Assembly: GCA_016187485.1 (NCBI GenBank)
Contig: JACPJO010000004.1
Coordinates: 56,306 to 120,305 of the forward strand
Direction: 5' to 3'
Origin: Candidatus Uhrbacteria bacterium
Lineage (GTDB): Bacteria > Patescibacteriota > Patescibacteriia > UBA9934 > UBA10169
DNA: 64,000 bases
The notes beneath the pieces were generated by a model. That model had not been told where the DNA came from. It worked only from the letters and a program-made list of their open reading frames with translations, and did not search any database. This document shows positions 22,203-61,339 of this stretch, one piece after another. Every line of letters begins with the position of its first letter. Within the stretch, counting starts at the first letter, position 1. The translations under genes and the position numbers were made by a program.

Positions 22203-23825
22203 CTACTTGATGTCTTCGCCGTAGCAGCTCTGGGCTCTGCCTTCGGCGTTCTTGGTGCAGAGGGTGGGAATGCCCCCGCAGTAGTACCGGTCGTAGAGGG
22301 TGCGCTTCTCGCGACCCTTCACGTTGACGGCACCGGGCACGCACTCGCCCTTGAGGACATCGCCCGTCAGCATCGCCTCGAGCGCGCGCTGGGCGTACCC
22401 AGCTTTCTTCTCGGCGGCGAGAGCGCGCTCGTCAGCCTTGCCGAACTTGGTCTCGGCCAAGTGCGCCGAAGCGGCAGACTCCGCCGCAGCGGCTTCAGCA
22501 GCCGAGCGCAGTTCCTCCCGACGGGACGTTTCCTTCGAGAAGACGGTGATGAGACTGGCCACGTGGTCGTTCATCCACTCCGACGACTCGCCGATGCTCG
22601 CGATCTGCTCGCTCTGGGTTGCGTCCACGCGGCCCTGGTGCATCCAGAACGCAACGATTCCAGTAGCAAGGACGGTAAAGAGGCCGATCACGATCGTCCG
22701 CACACGCTTGAGCGCGTGGAGAGCCAGAGAGAGGCGTTGACCGAGATCTTCCACCTGCTTCACGGACGGGAGCGCGATGACCGGCATCGGCCGCTCCGTC
22801 CCGGGGGTCGTCTGCTGCCTGGACGGCGGCGGCTCGGGGTAGGCCAGCCTGCGCAGTGCCACCATCCCCTGCTCCATGGTCATGAGCCGATCCCACATAC
22901 CGTCGAAGACCGCACGGTTGTACGCCGGCTCTCCGCTTCCGTCGCAGATGACCGCGACGATCTGCGTCCACATGCCCGTGAGGTCCGGACGACTGATCGT
23001 GAAGGGGAACTTCGTCGCCAGGATGGCCCAGACATTCTGGGCGTTCATCGCCTTGGGAGCATCCCCCATCCCGAGGACCTCGGCCCACAGGTAGTCGCGG
23101 CGCAAGTTGGGCAGACGCCACAGATCTTCGGGACTGGGCGGCGCCTTCGCTGCCTGATCTTCACGCTTGAGCTGCTTCCAGATCGTGTCAAAGCTCGCCC
23201 GTCCGAGGGGAGGAAGATCACCCTGGCAGAGCATCAACTCCACCATCAGGTTGAAGTCAAGACGCATCTGCGGAAGAGCGACGATGTTGGGGAAGTGCCG
23301 CTGAAGCAGCCGCCAGGCGTTGTCCTCGTTGATGTCCCGAGGGTCCATCCCCTCGATCTCGAAGACCCGGCAGAGATACGCCCACCGGACGTCCAGGCCC
23401 CTCCAGTTGGCCTCAGGGTTCGGATCCGGCGCCACGGGCGGGCCGTTGCCCCCTCCGTTCGCTTCAAGTTCCGCCGCCACGCGGTGCATCTCGTCGGGGT
23501 CGAAGCCCTCCGTTTCCTCATCGTTCCCGATGCCATCGTGGATGGCTGCGGCCAGCACGTCCCGCCGACGGTCACCCTGGAACAATGGCCCCTCCGGAAT
23601 GCCGGGAATGGATCCCCCCTCTTCGTCTGCTGTCTGCACCGGCGGGGCACCACCAACCACCGGCACGATGCCGGGGCGCGGAAGATCCGTCGAGCCGGGG
23701 GCAGCCTCTCCCTCATCCCCAGGCGGTCGGGGAAGAAATCCCTCGTCTTCCACGATCTGTGCGGGACCCTTCTGGCCCTTGTTTCCATCGTTGCTTGAAA
23801 TGAGCATTCTGTTGTCTCCCTCCAT
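22203..23825 (-). CDS. Hypothetical 540-aa protein with compositionally foreign (very high GC3) codon usage. Disordered Pro/Gly/Glu N-terminus, two tandem aromatic-rich repeats of about 85 aa, one TM helix, a coiled-coil Ala/Glu segment and a Cys-rich C-terminus
   Basis: Balanced amino-acid composition on the minus frame. The overlapping plus-strand ORFs are Arg-rich artefacts. Repeats are ...WRLLQRHFPNIVALPQMRLDFNLMVELMLCQGDLPPLGRASFDTIWKQL and ...VWAILATKFPFTISRPDLTGMWTQIVAVICDGSGEPAYNRAVFDGMWDRL. TM helix IVIGLFTVLATGIVAFWMH. Confidence 0.6.
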   Translation of the reverse strand: MEGDNRMLISSNDGNKGQKGPAQIVEDEGFLPRPPGDEGEAAPGSTDLPRPGIVPVVGGAPPVQTADEEGGSIPGIPEGPLFQGDRRRDVLAAAIHDGIGNDEETEGFDPDEMHRVAAELEANGGGNGPPVAPDPNPEANWRGLDVRWAYLCRVFEIEGMDPRDINEDNAWRLLQRHFPNIVALPQMRLDFNLMVELMLCQGDLPPLGRASFDTIWKQLKREDQAAKAPPSPEDLWRLPNLRRDYLWAEVLGMGDAPKAMNAQNVWAILATKFPFTISRPDLTGMWTQIVAVICDGSGEPAYNRAVFDGMWDRLMTMEQGMVALRRLAYPEPPPSRQQTTPGTERPMPVIALPSVKQVEDLGQRLSLALHALKRVRTIVIGLFTVLATGIVAFWMHQGRVDATQSEQIASIGESSEWMNDHVASLITVFSKETSRREELRSAAEAAAAESAASAHLAETKFGKADERALAAEKKAGYAQRALEAMLTGDVLKGECVPGAVNVKGREKRTLYDRYYCGGIPTLCTKNAEGRAQSCYGEDIK

Positions 23826-23900
23826 AGGTCGCCAGACCCACAGGAGCCTCGGATGCTAACAAGAGAACTTCCTCTCGTCAAGCATCACAAGTACAATAGC

Positions 23901-25019
23901 ATGCACCCTATGTTGACGACGGAGTTGCAAAAAACTGACCTCCCCTTCGCCCTCGCCGCCGCCCGTTTTCCCAAATTCGGCGCCAAACGCCTGGCGCGCC
24001 TCAAGAAGGCTTTTGGGAATTTCGAGACCGTATGGGGTGCCGAGGCAAGAGACCTGGCGCGGGCGATCGAGCACATGGCGCTTGCCGAGGAGTTTGTCGC
24101 GGCACGACGAACCATCGAACCAGCAGAAGAAGTCGACAGGCTTGCGCAGACAGGCGTGTCAGTGGTGTGGATCGAAGAAGAGACGTACCCAGCTCTTCTG
24201 CGCGAAATCCATGACCCACCTCCCTTCCTTTTTCATCGCGGCGCCCTTCCAAAACCAGCCGACGTTCTTCTGTCCGTTGTGGGAAGCCGTCACATGAGTC
24301 GTTATGGCGCAGCTGTCCTTGAGATGTTTATGCCAGAACTCGCGCGCTCCGGTGTGCACATTGTAAGCGGTCTTGCACTTGGGTGCGACGGGTACGCACA
24401 CGAACTTACCGTGAAGCACCGCGGATGCACCTATGGAATTGTCGCGGGCGGATGTGACACCGAGAGTATCACGCCCGGACAAAATCGCGCGCTGGCGCAC
24501 GCCATGATCGCCGCAGGGGGTGGGGTGATCTCTGAACAACCTGTGGGTACCGCATCCTATCCGTCATCTTTTCCGCTGCGCAACCGATTGATTGCTGGCA
24601 TCAGCCGCGCCACATTAGTGATCGAGGCCGCTGAAGCGTCCGGCTCGCTTATCACTGCGCGTCTGGCGCTCGAAGAAAATCGCGACGTCCTTGCCGTTCC
24701 GGGTCCCATCAATGCTCCTATGAGTATCGGCACAAACCGGCTCGTGCGTTTTGGTGCGCATGTTGTTACCTCGGCCGAAGACATCCTCTCTCTTTTAGAG
24801 CTTGCCCCCACCACCCCTGTACCCGCGCGCATCGTCGAGCCACAAAACGCAACCGAAGCGGCTCTCCTCCCCCACCTCAACACGCACGGCATACATGTAG
24901 ACGAGCTTGTGCGGGCCAGTCGCCTCCCTACCACCCTCGTTCTCCAAACCCTTACCGCCATGGAACTGCGCGAGGTCGTTGTCCATATCGGAGGGAATCA
25001 TTATCGGTTGAACGGGTAG
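23901..25019 (+). CDS. dprA: DNA processing protein A (DprA/Smf)
   Basis: VVGSRHMSRYG...SGLALGCDGYAH...GGCDTESITPGQNRALAHAMIAAGGGVISEQ...FPLRNRLIAGIS. The track ORF starts at 23853. The ATG at 23901 is more plausible. Confidence 0.85.
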   Translation: MHPMLTTELQKTDLPFALAAARFPKFGAKRLARLKKAFGNFETVWGAEARDLARAIEHMALAEEFVAARRTIEPAEEVDRLAQTGVSVVWIEEETYPALLREIHDPPPFLFHRGALPKPADVLLSVVGSRHMSRYGAAVLEMFMPELARSGVHIVSGLALGCDGYAHELTVKHRGCTYGIVAGGCDTESITPGQNRALAHAMIAAGGGVISEQPVGTASYPSSFPLRNRLIAGISRATLVIEAAEASGSLITARLALEENRDVLAVPGPINAPMSIGTNRLVRFGAHVVTSAEDILSLLELAPTTPVPARIVEPQNATEAALLPHLNTHGIHVDELVRASRLPTTLVLQTLTAMELREVVVHIGGNHYRLNG

Positions 25020-25100
25020 CAAACCAGGATGTACAGATCGTGGTCCCCGCTTGACGAAGTCCGTCGCTCTTGTCATTGTGTGTCCCATTGACCGCCCTGC

Positions 25101-27593
25101 ATGAGTAAACTCCTCATCGTCGAGTCGCCGACGAAAGCAAAAACGATCTCGAAATTTTTGGGACATGACTATCATGTTCTTTCTTCGTACGGTCACGTGC
25201 GCGATCTCCCCAAGAGCGATCTTGGGGTGGACATCGAGCACGGATACGCTCCCACATATGAAGTATCGCCGGACTCGCGCAAACACGTGACAGCGCTCAA
25301 AAAGGCCGCAAAGGAAGCAGACGAAGTCCTCTTTGCGACGGATGAAGACCGTGAGGGAGAGGCTATCTCCTGGCACCTGGCAGAGATTCTTGGTATGGAA
25401 CCCCGCGAGGTAAAACGCGTCGTATTCCACGAAATCACCAAGCGCGCCATCGAGGAAGCGCTCGCCCATCCGCGGCCGCTCGAAATGCCGCTCGTAGACG
25501 CCCAGCAAGCCCGGCGTATTTTGGACCGCCTCTACGGTTACGAAATCTCCCCCCTCCTGTGGCGAAAGATCGCGCCAAAACTTTCCGCCGGCCGCGTGCA
25601 AAGTGTTGCCACGCGCATCATTGTGGAACGCGAACGCGAACGCATGCGATTCGTGCGCGCCGGTTTTTGGGACGCACACGGCGTGTTTTGCAAATCAGAT
25701 GCCTGCTTCCCCGCACGACTGGTGGAGGTGAAAGGCGCGCGCTTGGCAAATGGAAAACATTTTGACGCCGCAACCGGGCTCCTTACAAAGGAAGCAAAAG
25801 AAAAAGGATTTGTCGTCCTTGATGAAAAAACTGTGCGCGATCTTGTAGAGACATGGAAAACCACGTCGTGGAGTGTAAAGAGCGTGGAAGAGAAGCCGGC
25901 CGTCTCACACCCAAGTGCGCCGTTTACCACAAGCACTCTCCAACAAGAGGCCGCACGCAAACTCCGCTTATCGTCCAAAGAAACCATGCGCTCTGCCCAA
26001 TCGCTCTACGAGCGGGGGTTCATCACCTACATGCGCACGGATTCCACGACGCTTTCCGCACAAGCGATCTCTGCGGCGCGCTCCATCGTGACCACGCGTT
26101 TCGGCAAAGAAAACCTCCCAGCGGAGGCACGCCAATACCAGACAAAAGTAAAAAACGCGCAAGAAGCGCACGAGGCCATACGGCCCTCCGGAGAAGCATT
26201 TGCCGATCCGGAAGAAGTAGCCAAAGAGATGAATCCTGCCGAGGCAGCGCTTTATGATTTGATTTGGAAACGTACGATCGCCTCGCAAATGATCTCCGCC
26301 TCACTTCGGCACACCACCGTAGAAATTTCCAACAACGAAGCGCTTTTCTCCGCAACAGGGAAAATTGTTGATGTGCCGGGGTATCTGCACGTGTATATGG
26401 AGGGGAAGGACGAAACGGAAGAAGAGGCTGAAGCAACTCTGCCGGCGCTTGTCGCAGGCGACAAACTTACGGCACAAGAGCTCTCCCCAGAATCGCACGA
26501 AACAAAACCACCTGCGCGTTATACGGAAGCCTCTCTCATTAAAATGCTCGAAGCAAACGGCATTGGCCGCCCAAGCACATTTTCTTCCATCATCTCGACC
26601 ATCATGACACGCGACTATGTGCGTAAGGTAGGCCAAGCGCTTGTGCCGACATTCAAAGCGTTTGCGGTCGTGCAGCTTCTGGAGCAATGGTTTACACATC
26701 TGGTAGACATTGGCTTTACGGCAGAAATGGAGGAGGGGCTCGACGCCATTTCGCGCGACGAAAAAGAGGCGACGCCGTTTTTGGATGCCTTCTACCACGG
26801 GGGCACGTATCCGGGTCTTGCGGGCATGCTGAAGGCCGAGATTGATCCAAAAGAAGCGTGCACCATCGCGCTCTCCCAACATCAGGGTTCTCCGGTCAAT
26901 ATTCGCGTGGGACGCTTCGGTCCCTACTTGGAGTGGCGAGACCTTCGCGTATCCTTGCCCGAAGACATGTCTCCCGAGGATGTCACGCCCAAAGCGGCCG
27001 AAGAACTCCTCTCGAAAAAAGCCGAGGGACCACGAAAGCTTGGAGACGATCCGGAAGGCGGACTCCCTATCTATGCGATGAGCGGACGCTTTGGCCCTTA
27101 CGTCCAGCTTGGAGAAAAATCCGATGAGAGTAAGCCAAAGATGAAAAGTTTGCCGCGGGGCATGAGTGAGCAGGAAGTTTCTCTTGAACAAGCCGTGTAC
27201 TTATTGTCTCTCCCGCGCGAAATCGGCACACATCCAGAATCCTATGAGCCCGTCGTGCTTGATCTTGGACGGTTCGGCCCCTACATCAAATGCGCAAGTG
27301 AGAGCCGAAGTCTGAAAGCGGAAGATTCCATCTTCACATTGACGCTCCCGCGCGCGCTCGAGCTTCTGGCGCAAGAGAAAGTGGGTCGTGGCGGACGGCG
27401 CATAACGAAAAAGACTGTCTTGAAAGATCTTGGGGAAGGCCTGCAGATTCTCGATGGCCGCTACGGTCCCTATGTCACGGATGGAAAAAAGAATGCGTCG
27501 CTCCCCAAAGGAACAAGCGCGGAAGACATGACCGTAGAATCCGCCCAGACGCTTCTCTCCGAGAAAAAGACAAAGCGCAAGAAAAAGTCTTAG
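25101..27593 (+). CDS. topA: DNA topoisomerase I
   Basis: TOPRIM N-terminus MSKLLIVESPTKAKTISKFLG, an active-site Tyr region and repeated GRFGPY C-terminal motifs. Confidence 0.92.
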   Translation: MSKLLIVESPTKAKTISKFLGHDYHVLSSYGHVRDLPKSDLGVDIEHGYAPTYEVSPDSRKHVTALKKAAKEADEVLFATDEDREGEAISWHLAEILGMEPREVKRVVFHEITKRAIEEALAHPRPLEMPLVDAQQARRILDRLYGYEISPLLWRKIAPKLSAGRVQSVATRIIVERERERMRFVRAGFWDAHGVFCKSDACFPARLVEVKGARLANGKHFDAATGLLTKEAKEKGFVVLDEKTVRDLVETWKTTSWSVKSVEEKPAVSHPSAPFTTSTLQQEAARKLRLSSKETMRSAQSLYERGFITYMRTDSTTLSAQAISAARSIVTTRFGKENLPAEARQYQTKVKNAQEAHEAIRPSGEAFADPEEVAKEMNPAEAALYDLIWKRTIASQMISASLRHTTVEISNNEALFSATGKIVDVPGYLHVYMEGKDETEEEAEATLPALVAGDKLTAQELSPESHETKPPARYTEASLIKMLEANGIGRPSTFSSIISTIMTRDYVRKVGQALVPTFKAFAVVQLLEQWFTHLVDIGFTAEMEEGLDAISRDEKEATPFLDAFYHGGTYPGLAGMLKAEIDPKEACTIALSQHQGSPVNIRVGRFGPYLEWRDLRVSLPEDMSPEDVTPKAAEELLSKKAEGPRKLGDDPEGGLPIYAMSGRFGPYVQLGEKSDESKPKMKSLPRGMSEQEVSLEQAVYLLSLPREIGTHPESYEPVVLDLGRFGPYIKCASESRSLKAEDSIFTLTLPRALELLAQEKVGRGGRRITKKTVLKDLGEGLQILDGRYGPYVTDGKKNASLPKGTSAEDMTVESAQTLLSEKKTKRKKKS

Positions 27594-29020
27594 TGATGGT
27601 CTTTCTTTTCGTGTCCTCCGCCTCCATGACCCCCTGCGGGTTTTTTTGGTTTTCCAAAAAAGAGGTTGCCGACCACGGGAAAAAGGCGCTCGCCGCGCTC
27701 TTCCCACGGCTTCGGACGCTCGTGCGGAGGGTGCAGGTGATCCAAACCAAAGCCAAAGCCAAAATATTTTCTTGTCCAACTACCAAATCCGGCAAGTTGA
27801 TTTACTACGCCATCTGTCCACTGTTCCCCATAGTATAGGATGGGTTCGCCAAGCACGCGCCACGCGGAGCGCAGAAGATACCCGGCGGAAAGTCCCGTGA
27901 ATGCCGCCGTGCCCAGCAGCCCGCGACCGACGTGCCCCAAAAACGGATCGCCTTTCACCTCCCCCTTTCCCACCCTCTCAAGCACTCGTTCATCTTGTGT
28001 CATCTCCCACAGCAGCTGGTTCATCTCAAGACGTTTGACGGGGTGCCACCACGATGGCGGATGAACAACGTCGCCCGTCACGGTACTTTCTATGTGCCCG
28101 TGCGCATTTTCACGATACGGCGCCACAAGTTTTTTGGTTTCTTCCGAAAGCCAAGCGTCGCCGTAGTTCTTCCACCCCTTCTCGGGAAGTCCGAAAACAT
28201 CCTGCAGAGAAAATCCCTCTTTGTCTTCCACCGTCGTGCGTTCGTGCATCTTGTCCGACGTCATCTTCATGAACCGCTCAAAAGCGCCCTTCGCTTTTTC
28301 AAGCGTGCGCGCATAGGCAGCCTCGGATGCTTTGAGCCGCTGCTTCACGTCGGCAAAATCCAGCTCTTCATCGTTGCGAAGATTTTGGATCGTCGTGTGT
28401 AATTCTTCTCGCGCCTTATAAAACTTCAGAACAGCTTCTTGGTCACCATCAAGCTTTTCATCGCTCTGCCGGTCTCGAACCCGAATCTCTTTCACCTCTT
28501 TATCACGTTGGAGTGTCCGCAAGATGGCCAGTTCCTGCAAAATTTTGAAGTAGTCCGGCGGATCGCCCTCGTGGTGATCGATAGTGACGAAGTGAAGATC
28601 CGGGTCGGTGGCATAGGTATCTCCCACGCGAATGCCTATGTCTGACATCCCCACAGCATCCTGCAAACGAACAGCCGTACTCTCATCTGCTTTGTAGACT
28701 CCCACATTCAACTCTACGACCCCATCGGTACGACGCACATATTCTCGCGCTAAATGCGCGCCGGGATTACGCTCCCCGCGATTTTTTGAAATGGCGCGTT
28801 CCTGTGCGGTTTTAAGCGCATCGAGAATCGCACGGTTTGTAAGCACCTCCATCGCCGCCGTCCTTCGAAGGGACGCTCCCGCCTGTTTTTCGGCGTCCTC
28901 GAGCACCTGACGAGCATGGCGTTCCCGTTCGCGAAGTTCCGCCATCGTTGCCGCGTGCGCCATGTCCGGATTGCCGAGGGAAGCTCCAGGTCTTCCGTGA
29001 TCAGGCGAATGCGTCGTCAT
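27590..29020 (-). CDS. Hypothetical 476-aa protein with a Gly/His-rich C-terminal tail (FGFGFGLDHLHPPHE...GGHGGGGHEKKDHH)
   Basis: Long ORF with host-like codon usage. No family recognised. A possible TM helix near the C-terminus. Confidence 0.5.
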   Translation of the reverse strand: MTTHSPDHGRPGASLGNPDMAHAATMAELRERERHARQVLEDAEKQAGASLRRTAAMEVLTNRAILDALKTAQERAISKNRGERNPGAHLAREYVRRTDGVVELNVGVYKADESTAVRLQDAVGMSDIGIRVGDTYATDPDLHFVTIDHHEGDPPDYFKILQELAILRTLQRDKEVKEIRVRDRQSDEKLDGDQEAVLKFYKAREELHTTIQNLRNDEELDFADVKQRLKASEAAYARTLEKAKGAFERFMKMTSDKMHERTTVEDKEGFSLQDVFGLPEKGWKNYGDAWLSEETKKLVAPYRENAHGHIESTVTGDVVHPPSWWHPVKRLEMNQLLWEMTQDERVLERVGKGEVKGDPFLGHVGRGLLGTAAFTGLSAGYLLRSAWRVLGEPILYYGEQWTDGVVNQLAGFGSWTRKYFGFGFGLDHLHPPHERPKPWEERGERLFPVVGNLFFGKPKKPAGGHGGGGHEKKDHH

Positions 29021-29100
29021 ATGGCTCGCATTCTACCAAAACACCGCAAATCCGCACAGCCGCTTGTCGAGACGCAAGGGGTACGTTATCGTGGGTGGAT

Positions 29101-31426: not shown

Positions 31427-32235
31427 AGTGTGGCGGGGTCGGGTTCGATGGTGCCGCCCGATTCGCGCAGGAGAAATTCCCGTGCAAGCCGGTCGTACGC
31501 CTTCGCCCCCTTCCCGGAAGGATCATAATGTAAAATAGTTTTTCCGGCAGATGGCGCCTCGGCCAGCCGTACCGTGCGTGGAATGACCGAACGGAAAATG
31601 CGGTTGGGAAAATACCGATACAGTTCTTCAAGCACATCACGCGACAGCGTTGTTCGGCTGTCGTACATCGTGATGACCGCGCCCATGATCTCGAGCTCCG
31701 GCTTCAAACCAGATTTTACCAAATCAATCGTTTGCATGAGTTGGCTCAACCCTTCAAGGGCAAAGTATTCTGCCTGCACGGGAATAAGAACAGAGTCAGC
31801 TGCTACAAGGCCGTTCACCGTAAGGAGGCCAAGCGAGGGCGGGTTATCAATAATAATGTAATCGTAGTCGTTGCGCACCTCGAGCAGCGCTTGGTGGAGT
31901 TTCCACTCACGCTCGGAAGAGCCGACAAGCTCCACCGGCGCGCCTGCAAGATTCATGGTAGCGGGGATCACACGCAATCCCTCATGCGCGGTAGCTTGTA
32001 CAACTTCTTTGGGTCGGCGCACACCCATGAGGATCTCGTAGATGCCGTGCGGGATCACGCGATAATCCAAACCGAGGCCGGACGTGGCGTTTGCTTGCGG
32101 ATCCAAATCCACCAGCAAGACAAACTTACCGTAATACGCAAGATAGGCCGCGAGATTCATCGCGGTCGTCGTCTTCCCCACTCCTCCCTTCTGATTCACA
32201 ACGGAAACAATGTGGGCCATAGCAGGAGTGTGCAT
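31423..32235 (-). CDS. parA: Chromosome partitioning ATPase ParA/Soj
   Basis: Deviant Walker A NQKGGVGKTTTAMNLAAYLA. Starts are at 32235 (MHTPAMAHIV) or 32220 (MAHIVSV). The track ORF extends to 32388. Confidence 0.88.
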   Translation of the reverse strand: MHTPAMAHIVSVVNQKGGVGKTTTAMNLAAYLAYYGKFVLLVDLDPQANATSGLGLDYRVIPHGIYEILMGVRRPKEVVQATAHEGLRVIPATMNLAGAPVELVGSSEREWKLHQALLEVRNDYDYIIIDNPPSLGLLTVNGLVAADSVLIPVQAEYFALEGLSQLMQTIDLVKSGLKPELEIMGAVITMYDSRTTLSRDVLEELYRYFPNRIFRSVIPRTVRLAEAPSAGKTILHYDPSGKGAKAYDRLAREFLLRESGGTIEPDPATL

Positions 32236-32399
32236 AGTATAGCAGACGGAAACGATTGACAGAAAGGCATTTCTGTGTAACTCTTGGGCTACCCCCCAAG
32301 GGGTGCACGAGACTGGATGGGTCGCCCGCAATCCTGCGGGGATGCCAAAAGGTCTCATGGTGGGACGTCCGGCATCCGGAGTCGCCACAGGAGTCAGTC

Positions 32400-33101
32400 A
32401 TGCACAATCACAGCAAGCCCGTGAGCTCCGTCCTGTCGTGGATCGCCTGGGTCTTCATCAACCCGACGGTTCTGGCCGTCGTGGGCACGTTCTTCTTCAT
32501 CTGGCTCTTCGCTCTTCCGGGTGAGCCTTTCTTCGATGGGCCCATCGTGACGGCGAGCGACAAGATGACCTTCGCTGCCTTGTTCGCCTGCGGTTCCGTG
32601 GTCCTGGGAGGATCTATGTTCATGAGCATGAACATGATGAACTCCCATCTGAAGCGCCATCAGATGGAGGCGAGCCGCCACCGCCTGGAGGGAGCGCTCT
32701 CCATGTCGTACATCTGCAACACGCCCGGCGCAGAAGAGATGGGGTTCCAATACCGGACGCCCGAGGACACGCTTCGGCTCCTCGTGACGGCACTGCGTGA
32801 GTTGCCCCAACGAGATGCGTGGAACATCACCGAGGAACAGCTGCGCGTGCTCGTGCGTCACGGCCTGAACGCGCAAGTGGTGCACAGTCAGCTCCTCGTC
32901 CTCGAGGACTTTCTGCGCGAGCCGCGCAAGCTGGCGCAGAGCAAGGGACTCAACGACGTGCTGGCCGCGATCGTCCCCTACCTCGAGTTCGTCCGCGAGA
33001 CTGCGCTCATGAACTGCGATCCCGACACGGCTACGCGGCGGCACTACCTGATCCGTGAGGCACTCGAGAAGGTGGCGCCCGTCATCACGAGGACGAACTA
33101 G
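32400..33101 (+). CDS. Hypothetical two-TM membrane protein with compositionally foreign (high GC3) codon usage
   Basis: MHNHSKPVSSVLSWIAWVFINPTVLAVVGTFFFIWLFAL... A second TM helix AALFACGSVVLGGSMFMSM. The GGAG RBS sits 8 nt upstream of the ATG at 32400. The track start is 32256. Confidence 0.5.
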   Translation: MHNHSKPVSSVLSWIAWVFINPTVLAVVGTFFFIWLFALPGEPFFDGPIVTASDKMTFAALFACGSVVLGGSMFMSMNMMNSHLKRHQMEASRHRLEGALSMSYICNTPGAEEMGFQYRTPEDTLRLLVTALRELPQRDAWNITEEQLRVLVRHGLNAQVVHSQLLVLEDFLREPRKLAQSKGLNDVLAAIVPYLEFVRETALMNCDPDTATRRHYLIREALEKVAPVITRTN

Positions 33102-33194
33102 TTCCGTTCCTTCTTGTCTCCCGTAGCTCGTAAGAGCGAAGGAGAATCACACGACCCCCCTGGGTCGTTTTCGATTTATCCGTATCTGAAATTG

Positions 33195-33293: not shown

Positions 33294-33337
33294 ATAAACC
33301 TCACGCAAGGGCCGATCGGCCCTTGCGTGAGGTTTAT
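33294..33337. repeat. Perfect 44-bp palindrome ATAAACCTCACGCAAGGGCCGA|TCGGCCCTTGCGTGAGGTTTAT
   Basis: Checked base by base. 22-bp arms with no spacer. Confidence 0.8.
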
Positions 33338-33360
33338 ATGAGGTCTATATGCTATATGGA

Positions 33361-33388: not shown

Positions 33389-33474
33389 TGGTGCCGGGAG
33401 AGGGACTCGAACCCTCAAGGGCTTGCGCCCACGGGATTTTGAGTCCCGCGCGTATACCAATTCCGCCATCCCGG
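33388..33474 (-). tRNA. tRNA-Leu (anticodon CAA), type II long variable arm, CCA encoded
   Basis: Reverse complement GCCGGGATGGCGGAATTGGTATACGCGCGGGACTCAAAATCCCGTGGGCGCAAGCCCTTGAGGGTTCGAGTCCCTCTCCCGGCACCA. Anticodon loop CTCAAAA. Confidence 0.88.
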
Positions 33475-33550
33475 CATTGCAAGCAGGATACTAACAATTC
33501 TTGGATTACTTGACAATCAAGCAGTTGGACTATAGCATTCAGCCACACGA

Positions 33551-33627
<77 letters not shown>

Positions 33628-33636
33628 ATTGTTCGG

Positions 33637-33713
33637 GGCTGGGTAGCTCAGTTGGTTAGAGCGAGGGACTCATAAGCCCTAGGTCGCCGGTTCGATTCCG
33701 GCCCCAGCTACCA
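33637..33713 (+). tRNA. tRNA with CAU anticodon: elongator Met or Ile2 (lysidine)
   Basis: GGCTGGGTAGCTCAGTTGGTTAGAGCGAGGGACTCATAAGCCCTAGGTCGCCGGTTCGATTCCGGCCCCAGCTACCA. Elongator-type acceptor stem. Its identity cannot be fixed from sequence alone. Confidence 0.8.
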
Positions 33714-41753: not shown

Positions 41754-41940
41754 AGCGGGAACAGTGTAGCAGAGGTTGGCAGGGTGAGGTAGGGGCCCAC
41801 AAGGGTTCCCTCGGAGCTTAATTCCGGGCAACAGCCATCGTTAAAATGACAAAGCCCCAGTGCGAGATGGTTCGAACCGAAGGTTCGAACCATCTCGCCT
41901 GGGGCGAGACACGTCGTGCGCAGACGACGTGAGTGGAGGT

Positions 41941-42411
41941 TCAGGGGACCGGCAGGAAGCCGACGAAGGAGACGTCGTAGTGCCAGGAGTCGGCGGGCCA
42001 ATGCCGGGCAAGATCACGACCGAACTGGTCGGACATGAAGCCCGGCACGGACAGCGACCTGCTGTCGTGGTACCAGCACGCGTCGATGTCGGGGACGGAG
42101 ATGTGGTAGCCCCGAGGATCAAAGACGCGACACCACCACGTGAAGGCGCCAACGTGGCCCAGGGCACCCTTCTTGCGGAAGTGGTCCCGGACGACGTCCG
42201 CCGGGATGACCTCGCCCGGCCGGAGGTCGGGCGTCCAGACCATCGGCTTGAACTTGCAGCCGCGACCCGGGATCAGCTTGCCGCTCGAGCCCACATAGTA
42301 GTCCCAGATGGTGTAGCCCTGATCCAAGTGGGTGAGATCGAGTTCGCGGGCCACGAGGGCGGTCAGCTTGGTAGCGTGGAGGTCGGGGACCGTGATGATG
42401 TCGTAATTCAT
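41941..42411 (-). CDS. Hypothetical 156-aa protein with compositionally foreign (GC3 near-saturated) codon usage, inserted between secY and adk. Trp/Tyr/His-rich, with a possible Cys...His (GRGCKF...GALGHVGAF) papain-fold-like motif (speculative)
   Basis: Codons are almost exclusively G/C-ending (AAG, GAC, GAG, TTC), unlike the flanking rp genes. Coherent amino-acid composition. The antisense ORF 41860..42543 is an Arg/Asp/Val artefact. Confidence 0.55.
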   Translation of the reverse strand: MNYDIITVPDLHATKLTALVARELDLTHLDQGYTIWDYYVGSSGKLIPGRGCKFKPMVWTPDLRPGEVIPADVVRDHFRKKGALGHVGAFTWWCRVFDPRGYHISVPDIDACWYHDSRSLSVPGFMSDQFGRDLARHWPADSWHYDVSFVGFLPVP

Positions 42412-42490
42412 GTTCCAGTTCCTTCCTTCTTGTCCGACACCAAAGTGTCAGACATGGGGGGTTGTCAAACTTATCACTCCAAACCTGCTA

Positions 42491-42507
42491 ACAACACGGG
42501 GTGTTGT
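42491..42507. promoter_or_regulatory. Operator-like perfect inverted repeat ACAACAC-GGG-GTGTTGT. A related half-site GGGGGGTTGTCAAAC and the palindrome GACACCAAAGTGTC lie upstream. All are in the 5' region of the inserted gene
   Basis: Seen directly at 42440-42510. Confidence 0.4.
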
Positions 42508-42605
42508 CACAAAAAACAGGTCTGGAATGACAAGCTCTTTTAAAGGACGAAGGTGTGAATTTACCAGAAAATCAGACTTTTGTCAATGAATATGGCCTAA
42601 TCTAG

Positions 42606-50747: not shown

Positions 50748-50755
50748 AGGAAAAA

Positions 50756-51755: not shown

Positions 51756-51756
51756 A

Positions 51757-52383: not shown

Positions 52384-52629
52384 ACGGTATAGAAAAACCA
52401 GAAGTTTGGATACGTCCTATGCCGTAGACAAACTTCTAGTTTCCAATACGCGACACACTTACACGTCTGGAGAATGTTGTTTGAATGAAACGTTGAACGT
52501 ATGTACTCTTGGGGGAAGCGCATGAAGGTTATCGCAGGGGATTATCTGACATCGCGCGAACTTTCTTCACGGTTCTCAAGAGTATCTGACTCTCGACCAA
52601 GCCCGTACAAAATTTTTTGTAGGGCGACA
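52384..52629 (-). promoter_or_regulatory. AT-rich 245-nt structured non-coding spacer between rpsJ and rplC. Candidate cis-regulatory RNA (ribosomal-protein leader/attenuator) or small RNA
   Basis: Much lower GC than the flanks. Near-palindrome CCGTACAAAATTTTTTGTAGGG directly 3' of the rpsJ stop. Inverted repeat CAGAAGTTTG...CAAACTTCTAG. Long-range complement TACTCTTG...CAAGAGTA. Confidence 0.4.
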
Positions 52630-52971
52630 CTACATTTTGATCTCTACATCCACCCCGGCAGGAAGATTGAGACTCATAAGCGCGTCCATCGTGCGCTCGG
52701 TGGGACTCAATATATCTACCAGTCGCTTGTGAATACGGATCTCGTACTGCTCACGACTGTCCTTGTGCACAAATGTTGACCGGTTTGTCGTGTATTTCCG
52801 CTTCTCGGTAGGAAGCGGAATAGGACCTACCACCAAAGCATCCGAGCGTTCGGCCGCTTTTATTATGGTTCCCGTCGCCTGATCTATGATCTTATGATCA
52901 TAGGCACGGATCTTGATGCGGATCCGCTGTTTTCCGGCTTCGGCAGACTTTTGATCAACGTCTTTGGACAC
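52630..52971 (-). CDS. rpsJ: 30S ribosomal protein S10
   Basis: [41 protein letters not shown]. Confidence 0.9.
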
Positions 52972-53043
52972 AGAAGAACGATTCCCGTCATCGGCGGGCG
53001 GAGAGAGCGGTTCCCGCTCCCCGTCGCCCGCTGATCACGCAGG

Positions 53044-54237: not shown

Positions 54238-54349
54238 AATTTGGCTTTATTGAGCGACCCCAGAGGAGCGCCAATGATTAAAATTAAGTGAGTTTACAAT
54301 AATGTGGCGCCAGTATAACACAGGTCAGATTCCTTGCAAGAGGCCACCC

Positions 54350-54619
54350 CTATTCTACCGGCTCAAGATAAAACTGGGTTTCGGACTCGAGGTCTGGCGG
54401 GGGAGGCGGGAGAGGAGGTTCCGGCTCCTTCCTTATCTCTGGCTTCGGCGGCTTCTCGGCAGGACGCGGTTGCTCTTTGGGCAGCTCACCTTTTCCATCC
54501 ACGAGCGTCTCGTAGCGTTCGGGACTCAACAGAACAAACGACTCCTCCTCCCCCATGACGATAAGCGGATGGCCTGTTTTTCTTGCAAGAGAGAGCAGGC
54601 GTTTGAGAGAGGCGTCCAT
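54350..54619 (-). CDS. Small hypothetical protein with a Phd/YefM-antitoxin-like N-terminal domain plus a Pro-rich low-complexity tail, between fusA and tuf
   Basis: GHPLIVMGEEESFVLLSPERYETL resembles the Phd/YefM core ([23 protein letters not shown]). Tail PKPEIRKEPEPPLPPPPPDLE. The antisense ORF 54302..54652 is rejected. Confidence 0.45.
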   Translation of the reverse strand: MDASLKRLLSLARKTGHPLIVMGEEESFVLLSPERYETLVDGKGELPKEQPRPAEKPPKPEIRKEPEPPLPPPPPDLESETQFYLEPVE

Positions 54620-54622
54620 AGA

Positions 54623-56713: not shown

Positions 56714-56721
56714 AGAGGAAG

Positions 56722-57189
56722 TTAGCGAGCAAAGTGCGCGAAGGCGCGGTTGGACTCGGCCATACGTTGAACGTCTTCCTTTTTCTTGAAGGCTTCCCCT
56801 TCGCTGTTCGCGGCTGCAAGCAACTCATCCGCCAACTTTTGATACATGGGACGGCCTTTTTTCGAACGCGCGGCAAGCAAAATCCAGCGCGCCGCAAGCG
56901 TAAAACGGCGTTCGCCGCGCACAGGAATTGGCACTTGGTAATTCGCCCCGCCCACGCGGCGCGACTTCACTTCAAGTGAGGGAGAGACTTGCTTCATGGC
57001 CTGCTCGAAAACTTCGACGGGATTCTTCTTGGATTTTTGCTCAATAAGATCGAGCGCCTTGTACATGACGTCCTGTGCAATGGTTTTCTTGCCATCGTTC
57101 ATGACGTAATTAATAAACTTCGCCACCGACACGTTTTGGAACTTCGGGTCAGGGGCGATGAGACGTTTGGGGGCTTGTTTGCCACGCAT
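56722..57189 (-). CDS. rpsG: 30S ribosomal protein S7
   Basis: [17 protein letters not shown]... ATG at 57189. The track ORF extends to 57249. Confidence 0.9.
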
Positions 57190-57262
57190 AAAGGGTTCGG
57201 AGCTCGTTTCTTCCCCGCGTGATGAGGGTACTGCGAGTCTCCGGATCAATAAAAGTTAAATA

Positions 57263-57688
57263 TTACTTTTTGGTTTTGGCTTTGGGCTTCTTCGATCCGT
57301 AGCGCGAGCGCCCGCGGTTGCGTCCCTCCACTCCTTGCGCATCGTACACACCGCGCACCAAGTGATAACGCACACCCGGCAAGTCTTTCACGCGTCCGCC
57401 GCGCACCAGCACGATGGAGTGTTCTTGCAAATTGTGTCCTTCACCCGGAATGTAAGCCGTCACCTCCGTGCCGTTCGAAAGACGAACGCGCGCGATTTTG
57501 CGAATAGCGGAGTTTGGTTTCTTTGGCGTCATGGTCGTCACCTTCACACACACCCCGCGCTTAAAGGGGCTGGGAAGATTTGTACGCTTGCGGTGCAGCG
57601 AGTCGTAACGGTATTGCGTCGCCGGCGACTTGGATTTGCTCTTTGGGCTCTTGCGGCCTTTTCGGATGAGTTGTTGGACAGTTGGCAT
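57263..57688 (-). CDS. rpsL: 30S ribosomal protein S12
   Basis: [26 protein letters not shown] at 57688. The track ORF is extended. Confidence 0.9.
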
Positions 57689-57738
57689 AAAAAGTGCCGG
57701 AACTGTAGCAAAGGATGAAAAAGGCGTCAATGCGTCCT

Positions 57739-58389
57739 CTAGCCAAAGAAACAGGCATCGCCCACAAGAACGCCACAGAGAGAAAAGACCCAACGAGAAA
57801 GAAACTGGAAGGGATTGAGCGGAGTGAGAAGCGAAAGGAATATGAGAAGGAAAAGAATTTGTGGGCCGCGTGTGAGAAGCCATGTGTGGAGATGCGCATG
57901 GCGTGGGTGGCTGGTAAGCGCAAGAAGAATCTTACTCCCATCCAGTGGGTGAATGGGGATGAGATTAAAGAGCGCCAGAGACAAATTCAAGATGAGGAGA
58001 AAAAGAAGAAAGGGAGTCAGGAGCGTCTCTGTTGCGGCAGGGGCAAGACTGCGTAGAGTAAGCGCGCTTACAAAGGCTAAAAGAATATTGGCGAAAGGCC
58101 CCGCCAAACCAATGACGACTCCGTCGCGAACGGGAGCGCGAAGATTGTAGGGGTTGTACGGGACAGGCTTGGCCCATCCAAAACCAAGAAACATCATGGC
58201 GAAAAACCCGACAAGGTCGAGATGCGCGAGGGGGTTGAGTGTCAGTCGCCCGTCACGCTCGGCCGTTTGATCCCCAAGCCACTTAGCAGAGAGCGCGTGA
58301 GAAAACTCATGCACGGTAAGAGAAAGCACAATCGCCACAAGCCAAAGGATGGCAAGAAGCGGCTCACGAAGAAGCCAAGAAAATATCAT
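57739..58389 (-). CDS. M50-family (site-2-protease-like) membrane zinc metalloprotease
   Basis: HExxH in TVHEFSHAL, a second motif [11 protein letters not shown], and multiple TM helices. Confidence 0.75.
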
Positions 58390-58392
58390 ATC

Positions 58393-59739
58393 TTACGACA
58401 CCGATTCGCGTGTCAGACGCACGCCAATATCCAGCAACTTTTCTTCCAGTCGTTCATAGCCGCGGTCCAGATGCTCCACGCCGCGGAGGATCGACGTCCC
58501 TTCCGCCACCAGTGCCGCCACAACAAATGCAAGTCCGGCACGAATATCAGGAATCTGGATCTCGTCCGCCCGCAGAGCGGTGGGACCATTAATTACGGCC
58601 GAGTGCTTACTGTTCCCTCCACGAAAGCGGCAAGAAATTTCCCCAAGACAATTCGAGAATAAGGTCACATCCGCTCCCATGCGGTTCAGTGTTTCTGTAT
58701 ACCCAAAGCGCGATTCGTAGACGGTTTCGTGCACAATGGATGTCCCCGTCGCCTGCGTGAGCACCACGGCAAACGGCGCTTGCCAATCGGTGCGAAATCC
58801 CGGATACGTATCCGTCTCAAGTTTAATGCTCGAAAGAGGCCGCTCCGTCCAAAAACGAATACCGTCCTCGCGAATATCGAACAATCCGCCGATACGACGC
58901 ACGGTGTTTAAAAAAGTCATAAGGTGTTCGTGCACCGCACCCTTCACAAACACATCCCCTTTCGTCGCAAGCGCAATGCAAGCAAAACTCGCTGCTTCGA
59001 GCGGGTCGGGCATAACCTTCATGACACATCCGCCGAGCCGCTCCACGCCGACGATCTCCACGACACGCCCGGCGCCCACTTCGATAATCGCCCCCATCTT
59101 CTGCAACATTTTGATGAGTTCTAGAATCTCCGGCTCCACCGCCGCGTTGCGAATAACCGTGCGGCCTTTCGCCAAAACACCGGCAAGAATACCGGTCTCC
59201 GTTGCCCCCACCGAAGGATAAGGTAGGTCGATGAGCGCACCTTGAAGCGGGCGCGGGGCACGCGCCCTATACCCGTCGGGACGCTCTTCCACTTCCGCAC
59301 CCATCGCGCGCAACGCTTCGATATGCCACTGCACCGGCCGCTTCCCAATACGATCGCCATCAACAACGGGAACAAACGCTTCCCCTACCCTGTGCAGGAG
59401 CGGCGCGATAGCTAAAATGCTTATCCGGTTCTTCGCGGAAAGTCCGCGCACTTCCCCGCTTGGCACGGAACGCGTCTCAAGAGAGAGCGTGTGGTCCTGC
59501 CACAGGGCACGCGCACCGACCGATTCCACAATTTCCTGCGTGATCGTCGTCTCTCGATGCCGCGGAACATTCTCGAGCACAACAGACTCTTCAGTGAGGA
59601 GAGAAGCGATCATCATCTTTGATGCGGCATTTTTTGCCCCGGAGACCTCCACGCTCCCTTTGACCGGCTGGCCTCCCTCGACACGAAATAATTCCATAGA
59701 TTGGTCACCAGCATACCAGAAACGGACGGTTTCGGACAC
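58393..59739 (-). CDS. murA: UDP-N-acetylglucosamine 1-carboxyvinyltransferase
   Basis: VEVSGAKNAASKMMIASLL... Confidence 0.88.
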   Translation of the reverse strand: MSETVRFWYAGDQSMELFRVEGGQPVKGSVEVSGAKNAASKMMIASLLTEESVVLENVPRHRETTITQEIVESVGARALWQDHTLSLETRSVPSGEVRGLSAKNRISILAIAPLLHRVGEAFVPVVDGDRIGKRPVQWHIEALRAMGAEVEERPDGYRARAPRPLQGALIDLPYPSVGATETGILAGVLAKGRTVIRNAAVEPEILELIKMLQKMGAIIEVGAGRVVEIVGVERLGGCVMKVMPDPLEAASFACIALATKGDVFVKGAVHEHLMTFLNTVRRIGGLFDIREDGIRFWTERPLSSIKLETDTYPGFRTDWQAPFAVVLTQATGTSIVHETVYESRFGYTETLNRMGADVTLFSNCLGEISCRFRGGNSKHSAVINGPTALRADEIQIPDIRAGLAFVVAALVAEGTSILRGVEHLDRGYERLEEKLLDIGVRLTRESVS

Positions 59740-59745
59740 GTAATT

Positions 59746-60477
59746 CTACACGTTCATCGGTTGCTGTTTCTTTACCACCTCAGAGAGAAAAAGCGGCAGG
59801 ACACGAGACGCCTCAGGCGAGGGCCGGAGGCGAAGCATAACGTACTCAAGCTCACCGGGCGCACCGGCATACGTCTCATGGTACCCAATCAAACGCGCGG
59901 CGAGATCATCTTTATCAGACTCCGCCTGAAACTCCAACGCGTAAATCCCCTCGCCCGGAAAACTCCAGGCCATCGTGGAACACCCGTCAGAAGAAAGCAA
60001 AACGGCGGCTTCCTCCGGCGGACGTTCCATGCGATCCACATGCGCCAATTGGACAACAAAAGTGTCAGGAAGGTGTCGGAAGATCGGGTCCTGTGCCGCG
60101 GCCACGCATTTTCGGACGGTGTAGGAGCCGACCTCCCGGTGCTCTTCATCATGCGAGACGGATCCTCCAAAGGCAATCGTCAAAATGTGCGCGCCAAAAT
60201 TGATACCAAGCATGGGGATACGGCGGCGGCGCGCTTCATGCGCGAAACACGAAAAAGACTCAACGCGTTCTCGTGATTCGCGCAGAATGCACGTTTTTCC
60301 CGTCGCTCCGAGGATGATCGCATCTACTCCAGAGAGACGAATATCTTCCAAAGTTGTTTTGTGACTATCTATACCGTGAATATCCGAAGGAGGGAGACCG
60401 AGGCACTCTGTGATGCACGCGCGTTCGTGAGCGCGCATCTCCGGCTCAACACGGGATTGAATCAAAAGAATCTTCAT
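59746..60477 (-). CDS. Class I glutamine amidotransferase-like protein
   Basis: MKILLIQSRVEPEMRAHE...MLGINFGAHILTIAFGGSV. ATG at 60477. The track ORF extends to 60672. Confidence 0.6.
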   Translation of the reverse strand: MKILLIQSRVEPEMRAHERACITECLGLPPSDIHGIDSHKTTLEDIRLSGVDAIILGATGKTCILRESRERVESFSCFAHEARRRRIPMLGINFGAHILTIAFGGSVSHDEEHREVGSYTVRKCVAAAQDPIFRHLPDTFVVQLAHVDRMERPPEEAAVLLSSDGCSTMAWSFPGEGIYALEFQAESDKDDLAARLIGYHETYAGAPGELEYVMLRLRPSPEASRVLPLFLSEVVKKQQPMNV

Positions 60478-60861
60478 ACAACAGTCAACTCTAGCGCGAC
60501 CAAGCAATCTGTCAATAAAAACACGGAAAACAAACAACGTCGCGTTTGACTTCCCTTGTCGTAAAGTCAAAGCGACGTTGCATGGCGACCCCAGAGATTG
60601 CACGGGCATTGAATCCACCTTTCGGAGGACGGTATGTGAACGGACGTCTCTGACAGCCGAAGCCGTCTTCACGTTGTTTACATGGCCCTTACCCGCGTGA
60701 CCAGCCCTCTCTCCTCGAAGAGAGGGTATCGGACAAAATGGTTTGAAAGTGTGCCCGCGGTTCCTCTGAAGTCACTTAAGAGTGTATCACTCAAATATGG
60801 ATTTGTCGTGAGACGCAAGGAAAAATACTCCGTGGTTATCCCACCTGTATCCACAGATTAT

Positions 60862-60891
60862 GCACAAACGAAAGACCAGCCGAGGCTGGTC
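60862..60891 (-). terminator. Rho-independent terminator (GACCAGCC-GAG-GGCTGGTC plus T-rich tail on the minus strand) after the 130-aa foreign gene
   Basis: Perfect 8-bp stem. On the minus strand it is followed by TTTCGTTTGTG. Confidence 0.5.
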
Positions 60892-60946
60892 GAGCAGAAA
60901 GAAGGTACGAATAGGCCAGAATGCTACGGGTCGAGCTCCCCGATAG

Positions 60947-61339
60947 CTAGACGGAGCAGGCGCCCCAGTGGCGACCGCTGTTGGCCGCACGGCGGGTGCC
61001 GCGGCGAATGACGGCGTACGTGCCGGTGTTGGCGCGCACGCGCTCGAGACCGAGGACGCGGCGCAAGTTCTGGTAGAGGCCCTTGGGCTCCTCGAAGCGC
61101 CACGCGTTCACGGCGATGCGGCGCTTGGCCCCGCGCGCCCACTCGGGCGCATCTTCCGGGCTCTCCTCCACCACCCAGCCCCGTCCGAGCGGCTTGCTGT
61201 AGATGGCCGTCACCTCCACTCCGGCGAACGCCTCACTGTCGAGCAGGAAGTGCACCTGAACCTTCAGGCGCTTTTCGAGCATCTTCGTGAGGGCGTCGAA
61301 GTGCGGGTCGTCGGCCACCACCACCGTGCTATCAGGCAT
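60947..61339 (-). CDS. Hypothetical 130-aa protein with compositionally foreign (high GC3) codon usage
   Basis: MPDSTVVVADDPHFDALTKMLEKRLKVQVHFLLDSEAFAGVEVTAIYSKPLGRGWVVEE... ATG at 61339. The track ORF extends to 61447. Confidence 0.5.
   Translation of the reverse strand: MPDSTVVVADDPHFDALTKMLEKRLKVQVHFLLDSEAFAGVEVTAIYSKPLGRGWVVEESPEDAPEWARGAKRRIAVNAWRFEEPKGLYQNLRRVLGLERVRANTGTYAVIRRGTRRAANSGRHWGACSV

Follow-up and report, generated by a model that had tools for sequence, protein, structure and literature searches.

The 64,000-nucleotide stretch of DNA analysed here, referred to as the window, comes from the genome assembly of a Candidatus Uhrbacteria bacterium (GCA_016187485.1, contig JACPJO010000004.1, positions 56,306 to 120,305) and carries four dispersed open reading frames (ORFs) whose codon usage departs sharply from that of the genes around them. 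They are named g1 (22203-23825, minus strand), g2 (32400-33101, plus strand), g3 (41941-42411, minus strand) and g4 (60947-61339, minus strand). Together with SecY, they match exactly the NCBI proteins MBI2484853, MBI2484860, MBI2484871, MBI2484901 and MBI2484872, which belong to a Candidatus Uhrbacteria metagenome-assembled genome (MAG) from groundwater, within the candidate phyla radiation (CPR). The window has a GC content of 55.6%. Its other genes include a ribosomal-protein cluster (S12, S7, EF-G, L14, L24, L5, S8, L6, L18, S5, L15) followed by secY-adk-map, as well as der, pth, dprA, topA, relA/spoT, parAB, ndk, comEC and a giant ORF of 3458 amino acids.

The GC content of third codon positions (GC3) lies between 0.54 and 0.66 in the native genes of the window, as delimited by greedy ORF calls, and this range includes the genes for ribosomal proteins, EF-Tu and EF-G and the 3458-amino acid ORF. 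The corresponding values at first, second and third positions (GC1/GC2/GC3) are 0.675/0.470/0.800 for g1, 0.607/0.402/0.850 for g2, 0.611/0.452/0.879 for g3 and 0.687/0.481/0.901 for g4. Their GC3 excess over native genes amounts to some +6 to +9 standard deviations (SD), a rough estimate drawn from the native-gene values. A sliding 300-nt scan of phase-specific GC flagged essentially these four genes alone, apart from two marginal blips of 0.76-0.77 elsewhere, and the boundaries of the high-GC3 regions coincide with the ends of the four ORFs. Furthermore, the tetranucleotide profile of the pooled genes lies 12 SD away from length-matched native segments, with single genes 3-7 SD away. The composition of the window is thus not uniform in either GC3 or tetranucleotides, and an earlier reading of this DNA, made from the sequence alone, was right that the four genes share an atypical, G/C-ending codon usage.

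The shift is seen across codon families. Codons ending in A fall from 16.6% in the background to 5.2% in the four-gene pool and those ending in T from 24% to 11%, while AAG, TAC, AAC, TTC and ATC each make up 87-97% of their own family in g1-g4. The amino-acid composition of the pool is near that of the background. High GC3 is not a general property of unannotated genes in the window, since a Pfam-less ORF of 476 amino acids (27590-29020) and the giant presumed surface proteins have ordinary GC3. Translational selection was rejected as its cause, as genes for ribosomal proteins and elongation factors also show ordinary values. Long antisense ORFs that overlap the outliers (for example 41860-42543, plus strand) were considered as the true genes and set aside: their GC1 of 0.77-0.88 exceeds their GC3, their translations are of low complexity, and the antisense shadow frame of g1 evolves without protein-level constraint, as described below.

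The four genes and their chromosomal sites

The largest of the four, g1, lies between pth and dprA and encodes an orphan protein of 540 amino acids, or of 534 if translation starts at position 23807; this second ATG, which is preceded by a GGAGGGAG Shine-Dalgarno sequence, is the likelier start. The sequence and a low-confidence AlphaFold2 (AF2) secondary structure indicate a disordered N-terminus rich in Pro, Gly and acidic residues, two helical repeats of ~85 amino acids, one predicted transmembrane (TM) helix, a coiled coil and a C-terminal tail rich in Cys, a layout that looks like that of a single-pass membrane protein. Apart from a start-codon variant of itself, its only relative is one ortholog in a sister MAG (GCA_016177675.1, contig JACOUU010000029, locus L098), which has the same topA-dprA-g1 synteny, 82% DNA identity over 2.7 kb and a GC3 that is also 0.80. 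Differences between the two genes number 46, 40 and 90 at the three codon positions, and the ratio of nonsynonymous to synonymous divergence (dN/dS) is 0.30 when the sense frame is read and 1.43 for the shadow frame; since the low ratio is confined to the sense frame, g1 is a real gene. It is also older than the split from the sister lineage. In the sister MAG, dprA (388-1513 of L098) takes the form of two ORFs that overlap (388-996 and 950-1513), which reflects a frameshift or pseudogene, or else an assembly error.

The second gene, g2, is divergent from parA and encodes an orphan protein of 233 amino acids whose hydrophobic N-terminal segments probably anchor it in the membrane and whose C-terminal domain is helical. 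For g1 and g2 a role in the cell envelope or in host contact may be guessed. A Shine-Dalgarno-like GGAG stands 7 nt 5' of the g2 ATG, and the evidence that g2 is coding consists of this sequence and a codon periodicity that stops at the ORF ends. It is the only one of the four that adjoins tRNA genes, with a cluster of tRNA-Leu(CAA), tRNA-Met and tRNA-Met (33389-33713) lying 290 bp downstream; tRNA clusters are classical integration neighbourhoods. One of the closest relatives examined, L015, is just partly syntenic in this region, so the g2 site is not strictly comparable.

The clearest insertion is that of g3, a 156-amino acid, Trp-rich, soluble orphan ORF that separates secY from adk within the ribosomal-protein operon. 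The site was compared across SecY-centred loci of GTDB species representatives, among which the closest relatives are L001, L002, L008 and L015. All four keep the flanking order over more than 10 genes, rpsE-rplO-secY-adk-map-ruvX-recO-(asnS)-aspS-scpA-scpB, and none has g3 at this site. The gap between secY and adk is 86 bp in L001, 36 bp in L008 and 29 bp in L015. L002 has a gap of 436 bp that contains a GIY-YIG ORF, and in the window the gap, with g3, measures 829 bp. Relative to these four genomes, g3 is an insertion. The free-standing GIY-YIG ORF of L002 occupies positions 11375-11677 of its locus, and in a further genome (L020) the gap holds three small ORFs (11270-12730). Insertions seem to recur at this junction in Patescibacteria.

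The sole homologue of g3, P0007, has 225 amino acids, 43% identity and 67 invariant positions. It lies at a different locus, adjoining rplJ on a separate CPR-like contig, and has a GC3 of 0.63 against a background of ~0.47. No GIY-YIG, HNH or LAGLIDADG signature was found in g3 with Pfam. A Trp-rich C-terminus with FVGF(R/L), present in both g3 and P0007, and a reverse-transcriptase-like fragment in L047 led us to consider g3 as the variable target, with a C-type-lectin fold, of a diversity-generating retroelement. This idea was dropped: a search for direct repeats of 35 nt or more gave none that involves g1-g4, no reverse transcriptase (RT) is present in the window, and no FGE/CLec Pfam hit was obtained. 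In another genome (L047), an 83-amino acid ORF (13589-13840) that by eye resembles a C-terminal RT fragment lies directly downstream of a high-GC3 orphan; no variable repeat/template repeat pair was found there.

The smallest gene, g4, is an Arg-rich orphan ORF of 130 amino acids in the divergent spacer between a gene with a GATase domain and ndk; like g3, its product looks like a small soluble protein. A codon periodicity that stops at the ORF ends and a Shine-Dalgarno-like sequence are the evidence that it is coding. Two ndk-centred metagenome loci of 56-57% GC, L109 and L110, provide a comparison, their ndk and murA being 77% and 68% identical to those of the window. The spacer between the GATase gene and ndk in L110 measures 4.7 kb and contains an unrelated, Pfam-less ORF of 600 amino acids with a GC3 of 0.91 (2231-4033; present also in L109), beside an S58 peptidase gene of ordinary GC3. 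This ORF is an exact match to KKW36872.1 of Uhrbacteria GW2011_GWC2_53_7. The spacer that holds g4 is therefore a variable hot spot. The ndk gene next to the 600-amino acid ORF in L110 is itself slightly elevated in GC3, at 0.76 where the locus median is 0.61.

The description of the four genes as single-gene inserts among housekeeping genes is borne out in part. All are single units between conserved genes, three in divergent spacers and g3 inside an operon; insertion is documented for g3 and the site of g4 is variable, whereas g1 also occurs in the sister MAG. The search for the same inserts in related genomes was likewise mixed, with g1 recovered from that MAG and g3 missing from the corresponding site of its four closest relatives.

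Homologues were sought in a total protein space of ~15 billion sequences, to which assemblies of these groundwater runs contribute. With g1 as the query, a full HMMER scan of 1.84 billion cluster representatives found the sister ortholog alone, and word-seeded HMMER searches of 5.8 billion clusters returned only the query for g2 and g4, and the query and P0007 for g3. Across the whole space, no homologue of g1-g4 was found in Actinobacteria or in any other non-CPR lineage at E≤0.01 (E≤0.001 for g1). A scan of JGI metagenomes for the g3 family gave no match. Neither g1-g4 nor the similar outliers of relatives described below match any family in Pfam, PHROGs, PADLOC or NCBIfam or any PDB sequence, in agreement with the sequence-only reading that all four are unannotatable. 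The four were also absent from 50,697 phage genomes and 72,556 plasmids, both searched with tblastn, and from IMG/VR. Compared all against all, the four proteins are unrelated to one another, and their flanks have no sequence in common. No integrase, transposase or recombinase appears in the gene calls of contigs that cover the g1-g4 regions, as had been proposed for the vicinity of each gene, and no att-like repeats, target-site duplications or shared flank sequences surround the genes.

The earlier reading had allowed that the four might be contaminating or chimeric segments. Independent per-run Logan assemblies (SRR121133xx-SRR121134xx) with contigs 99.9-100% identical to the window were used to examine this. 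In many samples, contigs span pth-g1-dprA, parA-g2, GATase-g4-ndk and g3-adk-map-ruvX, and seven of the eight junctions are reproduced: both of g1, g2 (the pair being spanned by one contig, L085) and g4, plus g3-adk. Every ndk-bearing Logan contig that reaches the g4 site contains g4. At the remaining junction, in at least nine samples, all 11 secY contigs end at 42502 and all 10 g3/adk contigs start at 42530. These limits define an assembly-graph fork with a 29-nt node (42502-42530) inside the g3 leader; the 29-mer is unique in the window, and the flanks overlap as they do in the MAG. The fork leaves g3 linked to adk. Empty-site alleles were sought by look-ups with secY, adk and ndk, which gave none for g4 and, for g3, just the unexplained fork. 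Chimerism and contamination are rejected.

Codon dialect, age and origin

A test of codon dialect that is largely independent of GC3 was made by comparing, for each four-fold box, the C/(C+G) share and the share of pyrimidine-ending codons (Y/R), in 8 families and ~1,060 codons. Against the background of the window, the pooled genes gave a correlation (r) of 0.83 for Y/R, the highest of 91 genomes, and of 0.75 for C/(C+G). Four high-GC Patescibacteria loci (L011, L021, L024 and L048; 61-68% GC) gave r of ~0.45-0.6 for C/(C+G) and ~0.3-0.6 for the pyrimidine share, and the Gammaproteobacteria dialect gave 0.1-0.4. Correlations were negative for the Rhodococcus replicon pRHL1 (-0.25 for C/(C+G), -0.54 for Y/R) and for a Thermus plasmid (-0.35 and -0.24). 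The telling families in g1-g4 are Leu, with CTC no rarer than CTG, and Thr, where ACG outnumbers ACC; both preferences are common to most high-GC3 outliers of other Patescibacteria. These results are suggestive, not decisive: the dialect speaks against a Rhodococcus-like source and for a Patescibacterial dialect, acquired either in a GC-richer relative or through long residence.

The sister MAG allows the history of g1 to be followed further. The window and the sister contig show a mosaic of identity levels, mostly ~75-85%, with patches of 95-99% at 23100-22708, inside g1, and of 92-100% at 24373-24581, inside dprA. The patches suggest recent homologous exchange between two Uhrbacteria lineages. 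In the diverged part of g1 (codons 7-241), synonymous divergence (dS) is 0.67 and dN/dS 0.29, compared with a dS of 0.6-1.2 for dprA and topA and of 0.09 for the exchanged part of g1. For g1 the nonsynonymous divergence (dN) is 0.12; topA and the half of dprA that is better conserved have 0.02-0.05. The value of 0.41 for dS over the whole gene was discarded as evidence of codon selection, being a mean of the diverged (0.67) and the recently recombined (0.09) parts. After a dS of 0.67, GC3 is still ~0.75-0.80 in both lineages, and it is highest, at 0.87, in the recently exchanged part.

In the diverged part, 26.3% of synonymous codons differ in G/C versus A/T state (strong/weak, S/W). A hand calculation that assumes drift at the rate of neighbouring genes from an ancestral GC3 near 0.85 toward 0.59 gives an expectation of ~27%. 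The S/W data are consistent with slow amelioration, and a maintained high GC3 is compatible with them as well. GC3 rises in the order g1, g2, g3, g4, and g1 is the sole gene in common with the sister MAG, which is fragmentary; the ranking and the sharing fit acquisition at different times.

We consider, with moderate confidence, that g1-g4 are independent single-gene horizontal acquisitions at operon boundaries, drawn at different times from an unsampled, GC-richer and probably Patescibacterial pool and since subject to slow amelioration. Both the direction of transfer and its source are what we infer from the data above. Each gene would have entered the Uhrbacteria chromosome separately, as a one-gene unit, from a GC-richer pool absent from current databases; a high-GC Patescibacterium or a mobile element circulating among Patescibacteria would be the most plausible source, and Actinobacteria would not be a likely one. 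The landing sites would be operon boundaries and divergent promoter spacers that tolerate insertion, namely pth|dprA, the interval between parA and the tRNA cluster, secY|adk and GATase|ndk. Each unit would carry, or have gained, a promoter-like site, a Shine-Dalgarno sequence and a terminator hairpin of its own, and would drift slowly toward the host GC3 of ~0.59, with g1, which has the lowest GC3, as the oldest. The route may have been natural transformation followed by illegitimate or homology-facilitated recombination, given comEC and dprA in the window and the mosaic recombination with the sister lineage.

Several observations weigh against this interpretation. The dialect test covers the limited set of codons given above, the Streptomyces phage phiC31 reaches r of 0.65 and 0.48, so that such usage stays compatible, and a close match to the resident dialect suits a native origin equally well. 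GC3 values of 0.85-0.90 imply little amelioration, yet no similar donor orthologue exists in the proteins searched. The S/W divergence of g1 is fitted equally by an equilibrium of ~0.76 with slightly faster turnover. Mobility genes, target-site duplications and common flank sequence are all lacking. Among the four, clean empty sites in relatives were found for g3 only, and the coding status of g2 and g4 depends solely on codon-position periodicity. Moreover, the mean pLDDT of AlphaFold2 models (41 for g3 with its homologue and 40 for g1 with its ortholog) is too low for a fold search.

Some of these points lend themselves to a different explanation, in which the four are lineage-specific genes, either native or resident for a long time, and a gene-specific force keeps their GC3 high. 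Such a force could be selection acting on mRNA or on synonymous sites, or GC-biased gene conversion (gBGC) at accessory loci prone to recombination, and the high GC3 would then not be inherited from a donor. The resident dialect is the best match among the genomes tested, the pool has an amino-acid composition close to the background, a donor is missing from the proteins searched, and g1 has retained its GC3 in both lineages, with the exchanged part higher still. Ribosomal proteins, EF-Tu and EF-G, which are highly expressed, show no GC3 shift, so there is no sign of translational selection. Gene conversion was examined separately and rejected, as the recombined patch of dprA has a normal GC3 (0.60 versus 0.61), so recombination alone does not raise it; reported gBGC effects in bacteria are of a few percent, not the 25-30 points seen here. 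In addition, S/W turnover in g1 equals the neutral expectation, and g3 is a clear insertion with a non-syntenic homologue. We regard a native origin as unlikely, although it deserves to be kept in mind. It also seems rather improbable that the genes are moron-like cargo or remnants of Uhrbacteria phages, plasmids or integrative elements, stranded after loss of the element. Each gene has its own promoter-like site or terminator hairpin, g2 adjoins a tRNA cluster, the secY|adk site of a relative holds a free-standing GIY-YIG gene, and one study documents integrative elements as a major source of ORFans (PMC2718499). Against this stand the lack of matches in PHROGs and in the phage, IMG/VR and plasmid collections, and the lack of an integrase, att-like repeats or other element genes; phage-derived orphans are also typically AT-richer than their host (PMC11293555).

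The sequence-only reading had favoured recent acquisition from a common high-GC donor such as Actinobacteria, perhaps the host of an epibiont. Genomic GC and codon-position GC are linked in general, and the GC1/GC2/GC3 profile of the four genes is as expected of a genome of ~65-70% GC. CPR bacteria are epibionts with DNA-uptake genes, and comEC and dprA are in the window. However, no homologue was found in Actinobacteria or elsewhere outside the CPR, the dialect is anticorrelated with that of Rhodococcus (CTC≥CTG, ACG>ACC), the four proteins are mutually unrelated and lack common flanks, which gives no sign of one shared event, and g1 is not recent. In a survey of groundwater Patescibacteria, 83% of the transfers of individual genes were intra-phylum and 1 of ~130 came from Actinomycetota (PMC12455944). 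The rarity of such transfers, the dialect and the lack of homologues mean that an actinobacterial or host donor is not supported, and we judge it very improbable. An artefact, whether chimeric or contaminating segments or spurious ORFs, is barely credible. The lack of any Logan contig across 42502-42530, just upstream of g3, is the one point in its favour. Chimerism would require two precise intergenic switch points per gene, the other seven junctions recur in many samples, and the flanks of the fork overlap by 29 nt as in the MAG; strong 3-base periodicity, the dN/dS of g1 and the homologue of g3 speak against spurious ORFs.

A wider form of the preferred reading, acquisition from a GC-richer pool, can be put forward only tentatively. 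Two Uhrbacteria have unrelated orphans of GC3 ~0.9 in the GATase|ndk spacer, and several genomes have an occupied secY|adk gap, so that Uhrbacteria, and Patescibacteria at large, might be repeatedly seeded with single orphans from one unsampled high-GC reservoir, such as an unrecognised mobile element, virus or partner lineage in close association with them, at a few operon-boundary hot spots. Such genes, some of which look anchored in the membrane, could form a toolkit of fast turnover for partner interaction or defence. We hold this wider reading as a whole to be doubtful.

Local features and neighbouring genes

Terminator hairpins lie near all four genes and consensus promoter-like sites 5' of g1 and g3, all identified as pattern matches. 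For g1, a promoter-like site with an extended TG (TTGACG-17-TAGCAT; 23853-23881, minus strand), defined by its match to the consensus, lies in the divergent g1/dprA spacer, and a terminator-like hairpin (22167-22188, minus strand; -14.2 kcal/mol, z -4.1) follows 15 nt past the stop codon. The promoter-like site for g3 (TTGACA-17-TAAATT with TG, 10 of 12 matches; 42558-42586, minus strand) is placed between the secY terminator hairpin and the gene. Between g3 and adk there is a very stable hairpin with a T-rich tail (41855-41904, minus strand; -60.2 kcal/mol over 106 nt, z -10.7), which was not called by a strict terminator scan. A terminator-like hairpin is found 56 nt past the g4 stop (60874-60891, minus strand). 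Another, with a U-run, stands inside the g4 upstream leader (61452-61479, minus strand; z -3.6). The spacer being divergent, no transcript from upstream needs terminating there, and this hairpin may be an attenuator or a leftover brought in with the cassette.

Downstream of g2, a terminator-like hairpin (33151-33168, plus strand) is located 50 nt past the stop. A perfect 44-nt palindrome with a 20-bp stem (33294-33337) lies between g2 and tRNA-Leu(CAA); it may be a bidirectional terminator, and Logan contig L085 stops inside it. The two tandem tRNA-Met(CAT) genes (33551-33713) are 10 nt apart and ~84% identical, and may represent an initiator and an elongator, or one may be a tRNA-Ile2 precursor. 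The longest-ORF starts of parA (32235-32388; 321 amino acids) and ndk (61571-62278; 235 amino acids) overshoot the calls of 270 and 186 amino acids made in independent assemblies, so the parA|g2 and g4|ndk spacers are larger than the ORF lists imply.

Elsewhere in the window, the 3458-amino acid ORF (1352-11728, minus strand) and the adjacent ORF of 636 amino acids (11738-13648, minus strand) have similar N-terminal signal/TM regions, and a 53-nt repeat of 72% identity joins 11397-11449 to 13308-13360 within them. Both have native GC3 and might be guessed to encode CPR surface proteins.

Similar outliers and known systems

Other Patescibacteria contain genes of this kind at lower density. A scan of ~1.6 Mb of SecY- and ndk-centred loci, mostly from Patescibacteria, for ORFs with a GC3 at least 0.2 over the locus median and of at least 0.73 found about ten outliers, most of them without a Pfam domain. 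Examples, given as GC3 against the locus median, are L001 (0.82 versus 0.51), L047 (0.82 versus 0.48), L119 (0.85 versus 0.31), L124, an Uhrbacteria hypothetical protein (0.73 versus 0.45), L134 (0.79 versus 0.30), L171 (0.84 versus 0.44) and L178 (0.82 versus 0.40). All exact-match records of outliers are hypothetical proteins in very small clusters, and they come from MAGs of Uhrbacteria, Parcubacteria or Patescibacteria. The window contains four such genes over its 64 kb, a density estimated at roughly ten times that of the scanned loci.

Surveys of orphan genes report a GC content that matches the genome, or a lower one where the orphans derive from phages (PMC11293555, PMC3514957), and this makes the GC-rich direction seen here unusual. 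Bacterial ORFans in general, like phage-derived orphans, are usually AT-richer than their genome or similar to it in GC. On the evidence available, the case is a well-documented one of ordinary horizontal acquisition whose unusual aspects are this direction, the lack of an identifiable donor and the reuse of a spacer in two Uhrbacteria. Genomes of CPR bacteria, or Patescibacteria, are small and syntenic and encode many proteins of unknown function. The present case points to some CPR orphans as compositionally foreign one-gene insertions at reusable hot spots, rather than slowly diverged native genes. If the pattern holds genome-wide, GC3 contrast would provide a cheap flag for accessory genes, possibly involved in partner interaction, and a lead to gene-exchange partners.

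Among known systems, g1-g4 resemble horizontally acquired single-gene 'islets' or ORFans under amelioration, as in the model of Lawrence and Ochman. They share with these a deviant GC3 and tetranucleotide composition, a patchy phyletic spread, a position between syntenic genes, faster protein evolution (in g1) and a divergence compatible with slow drift to the host composition; they differ in deviating toward higher GC and in having no nameable donor and no mobility machinery. The one-gene unit with a promoter-like site and putative terminator hairpin, the deviant composition and the placement of g3 between the linked secY and adk recall phage morons, although g1-g4 sit among chromosomal housekeeping genes rather than in a prophage and show no phage homology. 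Free-standing homing-endonuclease genes offer a third parallel, as the GIY-YIG ORF of L002 occupies the same secY|adk site and leaves the same single-gene footprint in a tight junction; g3 has no endonuclease signature, and that ORF has a native, low GC3. Finally, the groundwater CPR setting, the single-gene transfers, the likely Patescibacterial donor and the presence of the g3 family at different loci of two CPR-like genomes agree with the intra-phylum exchange reported in PMC12455944. The approach of that survey depends on donors having been recovered and picks up genes that are conserved and can be annotated, whereas g1-g4 are orphans of extreme GC3 contrast with no donor recovered.

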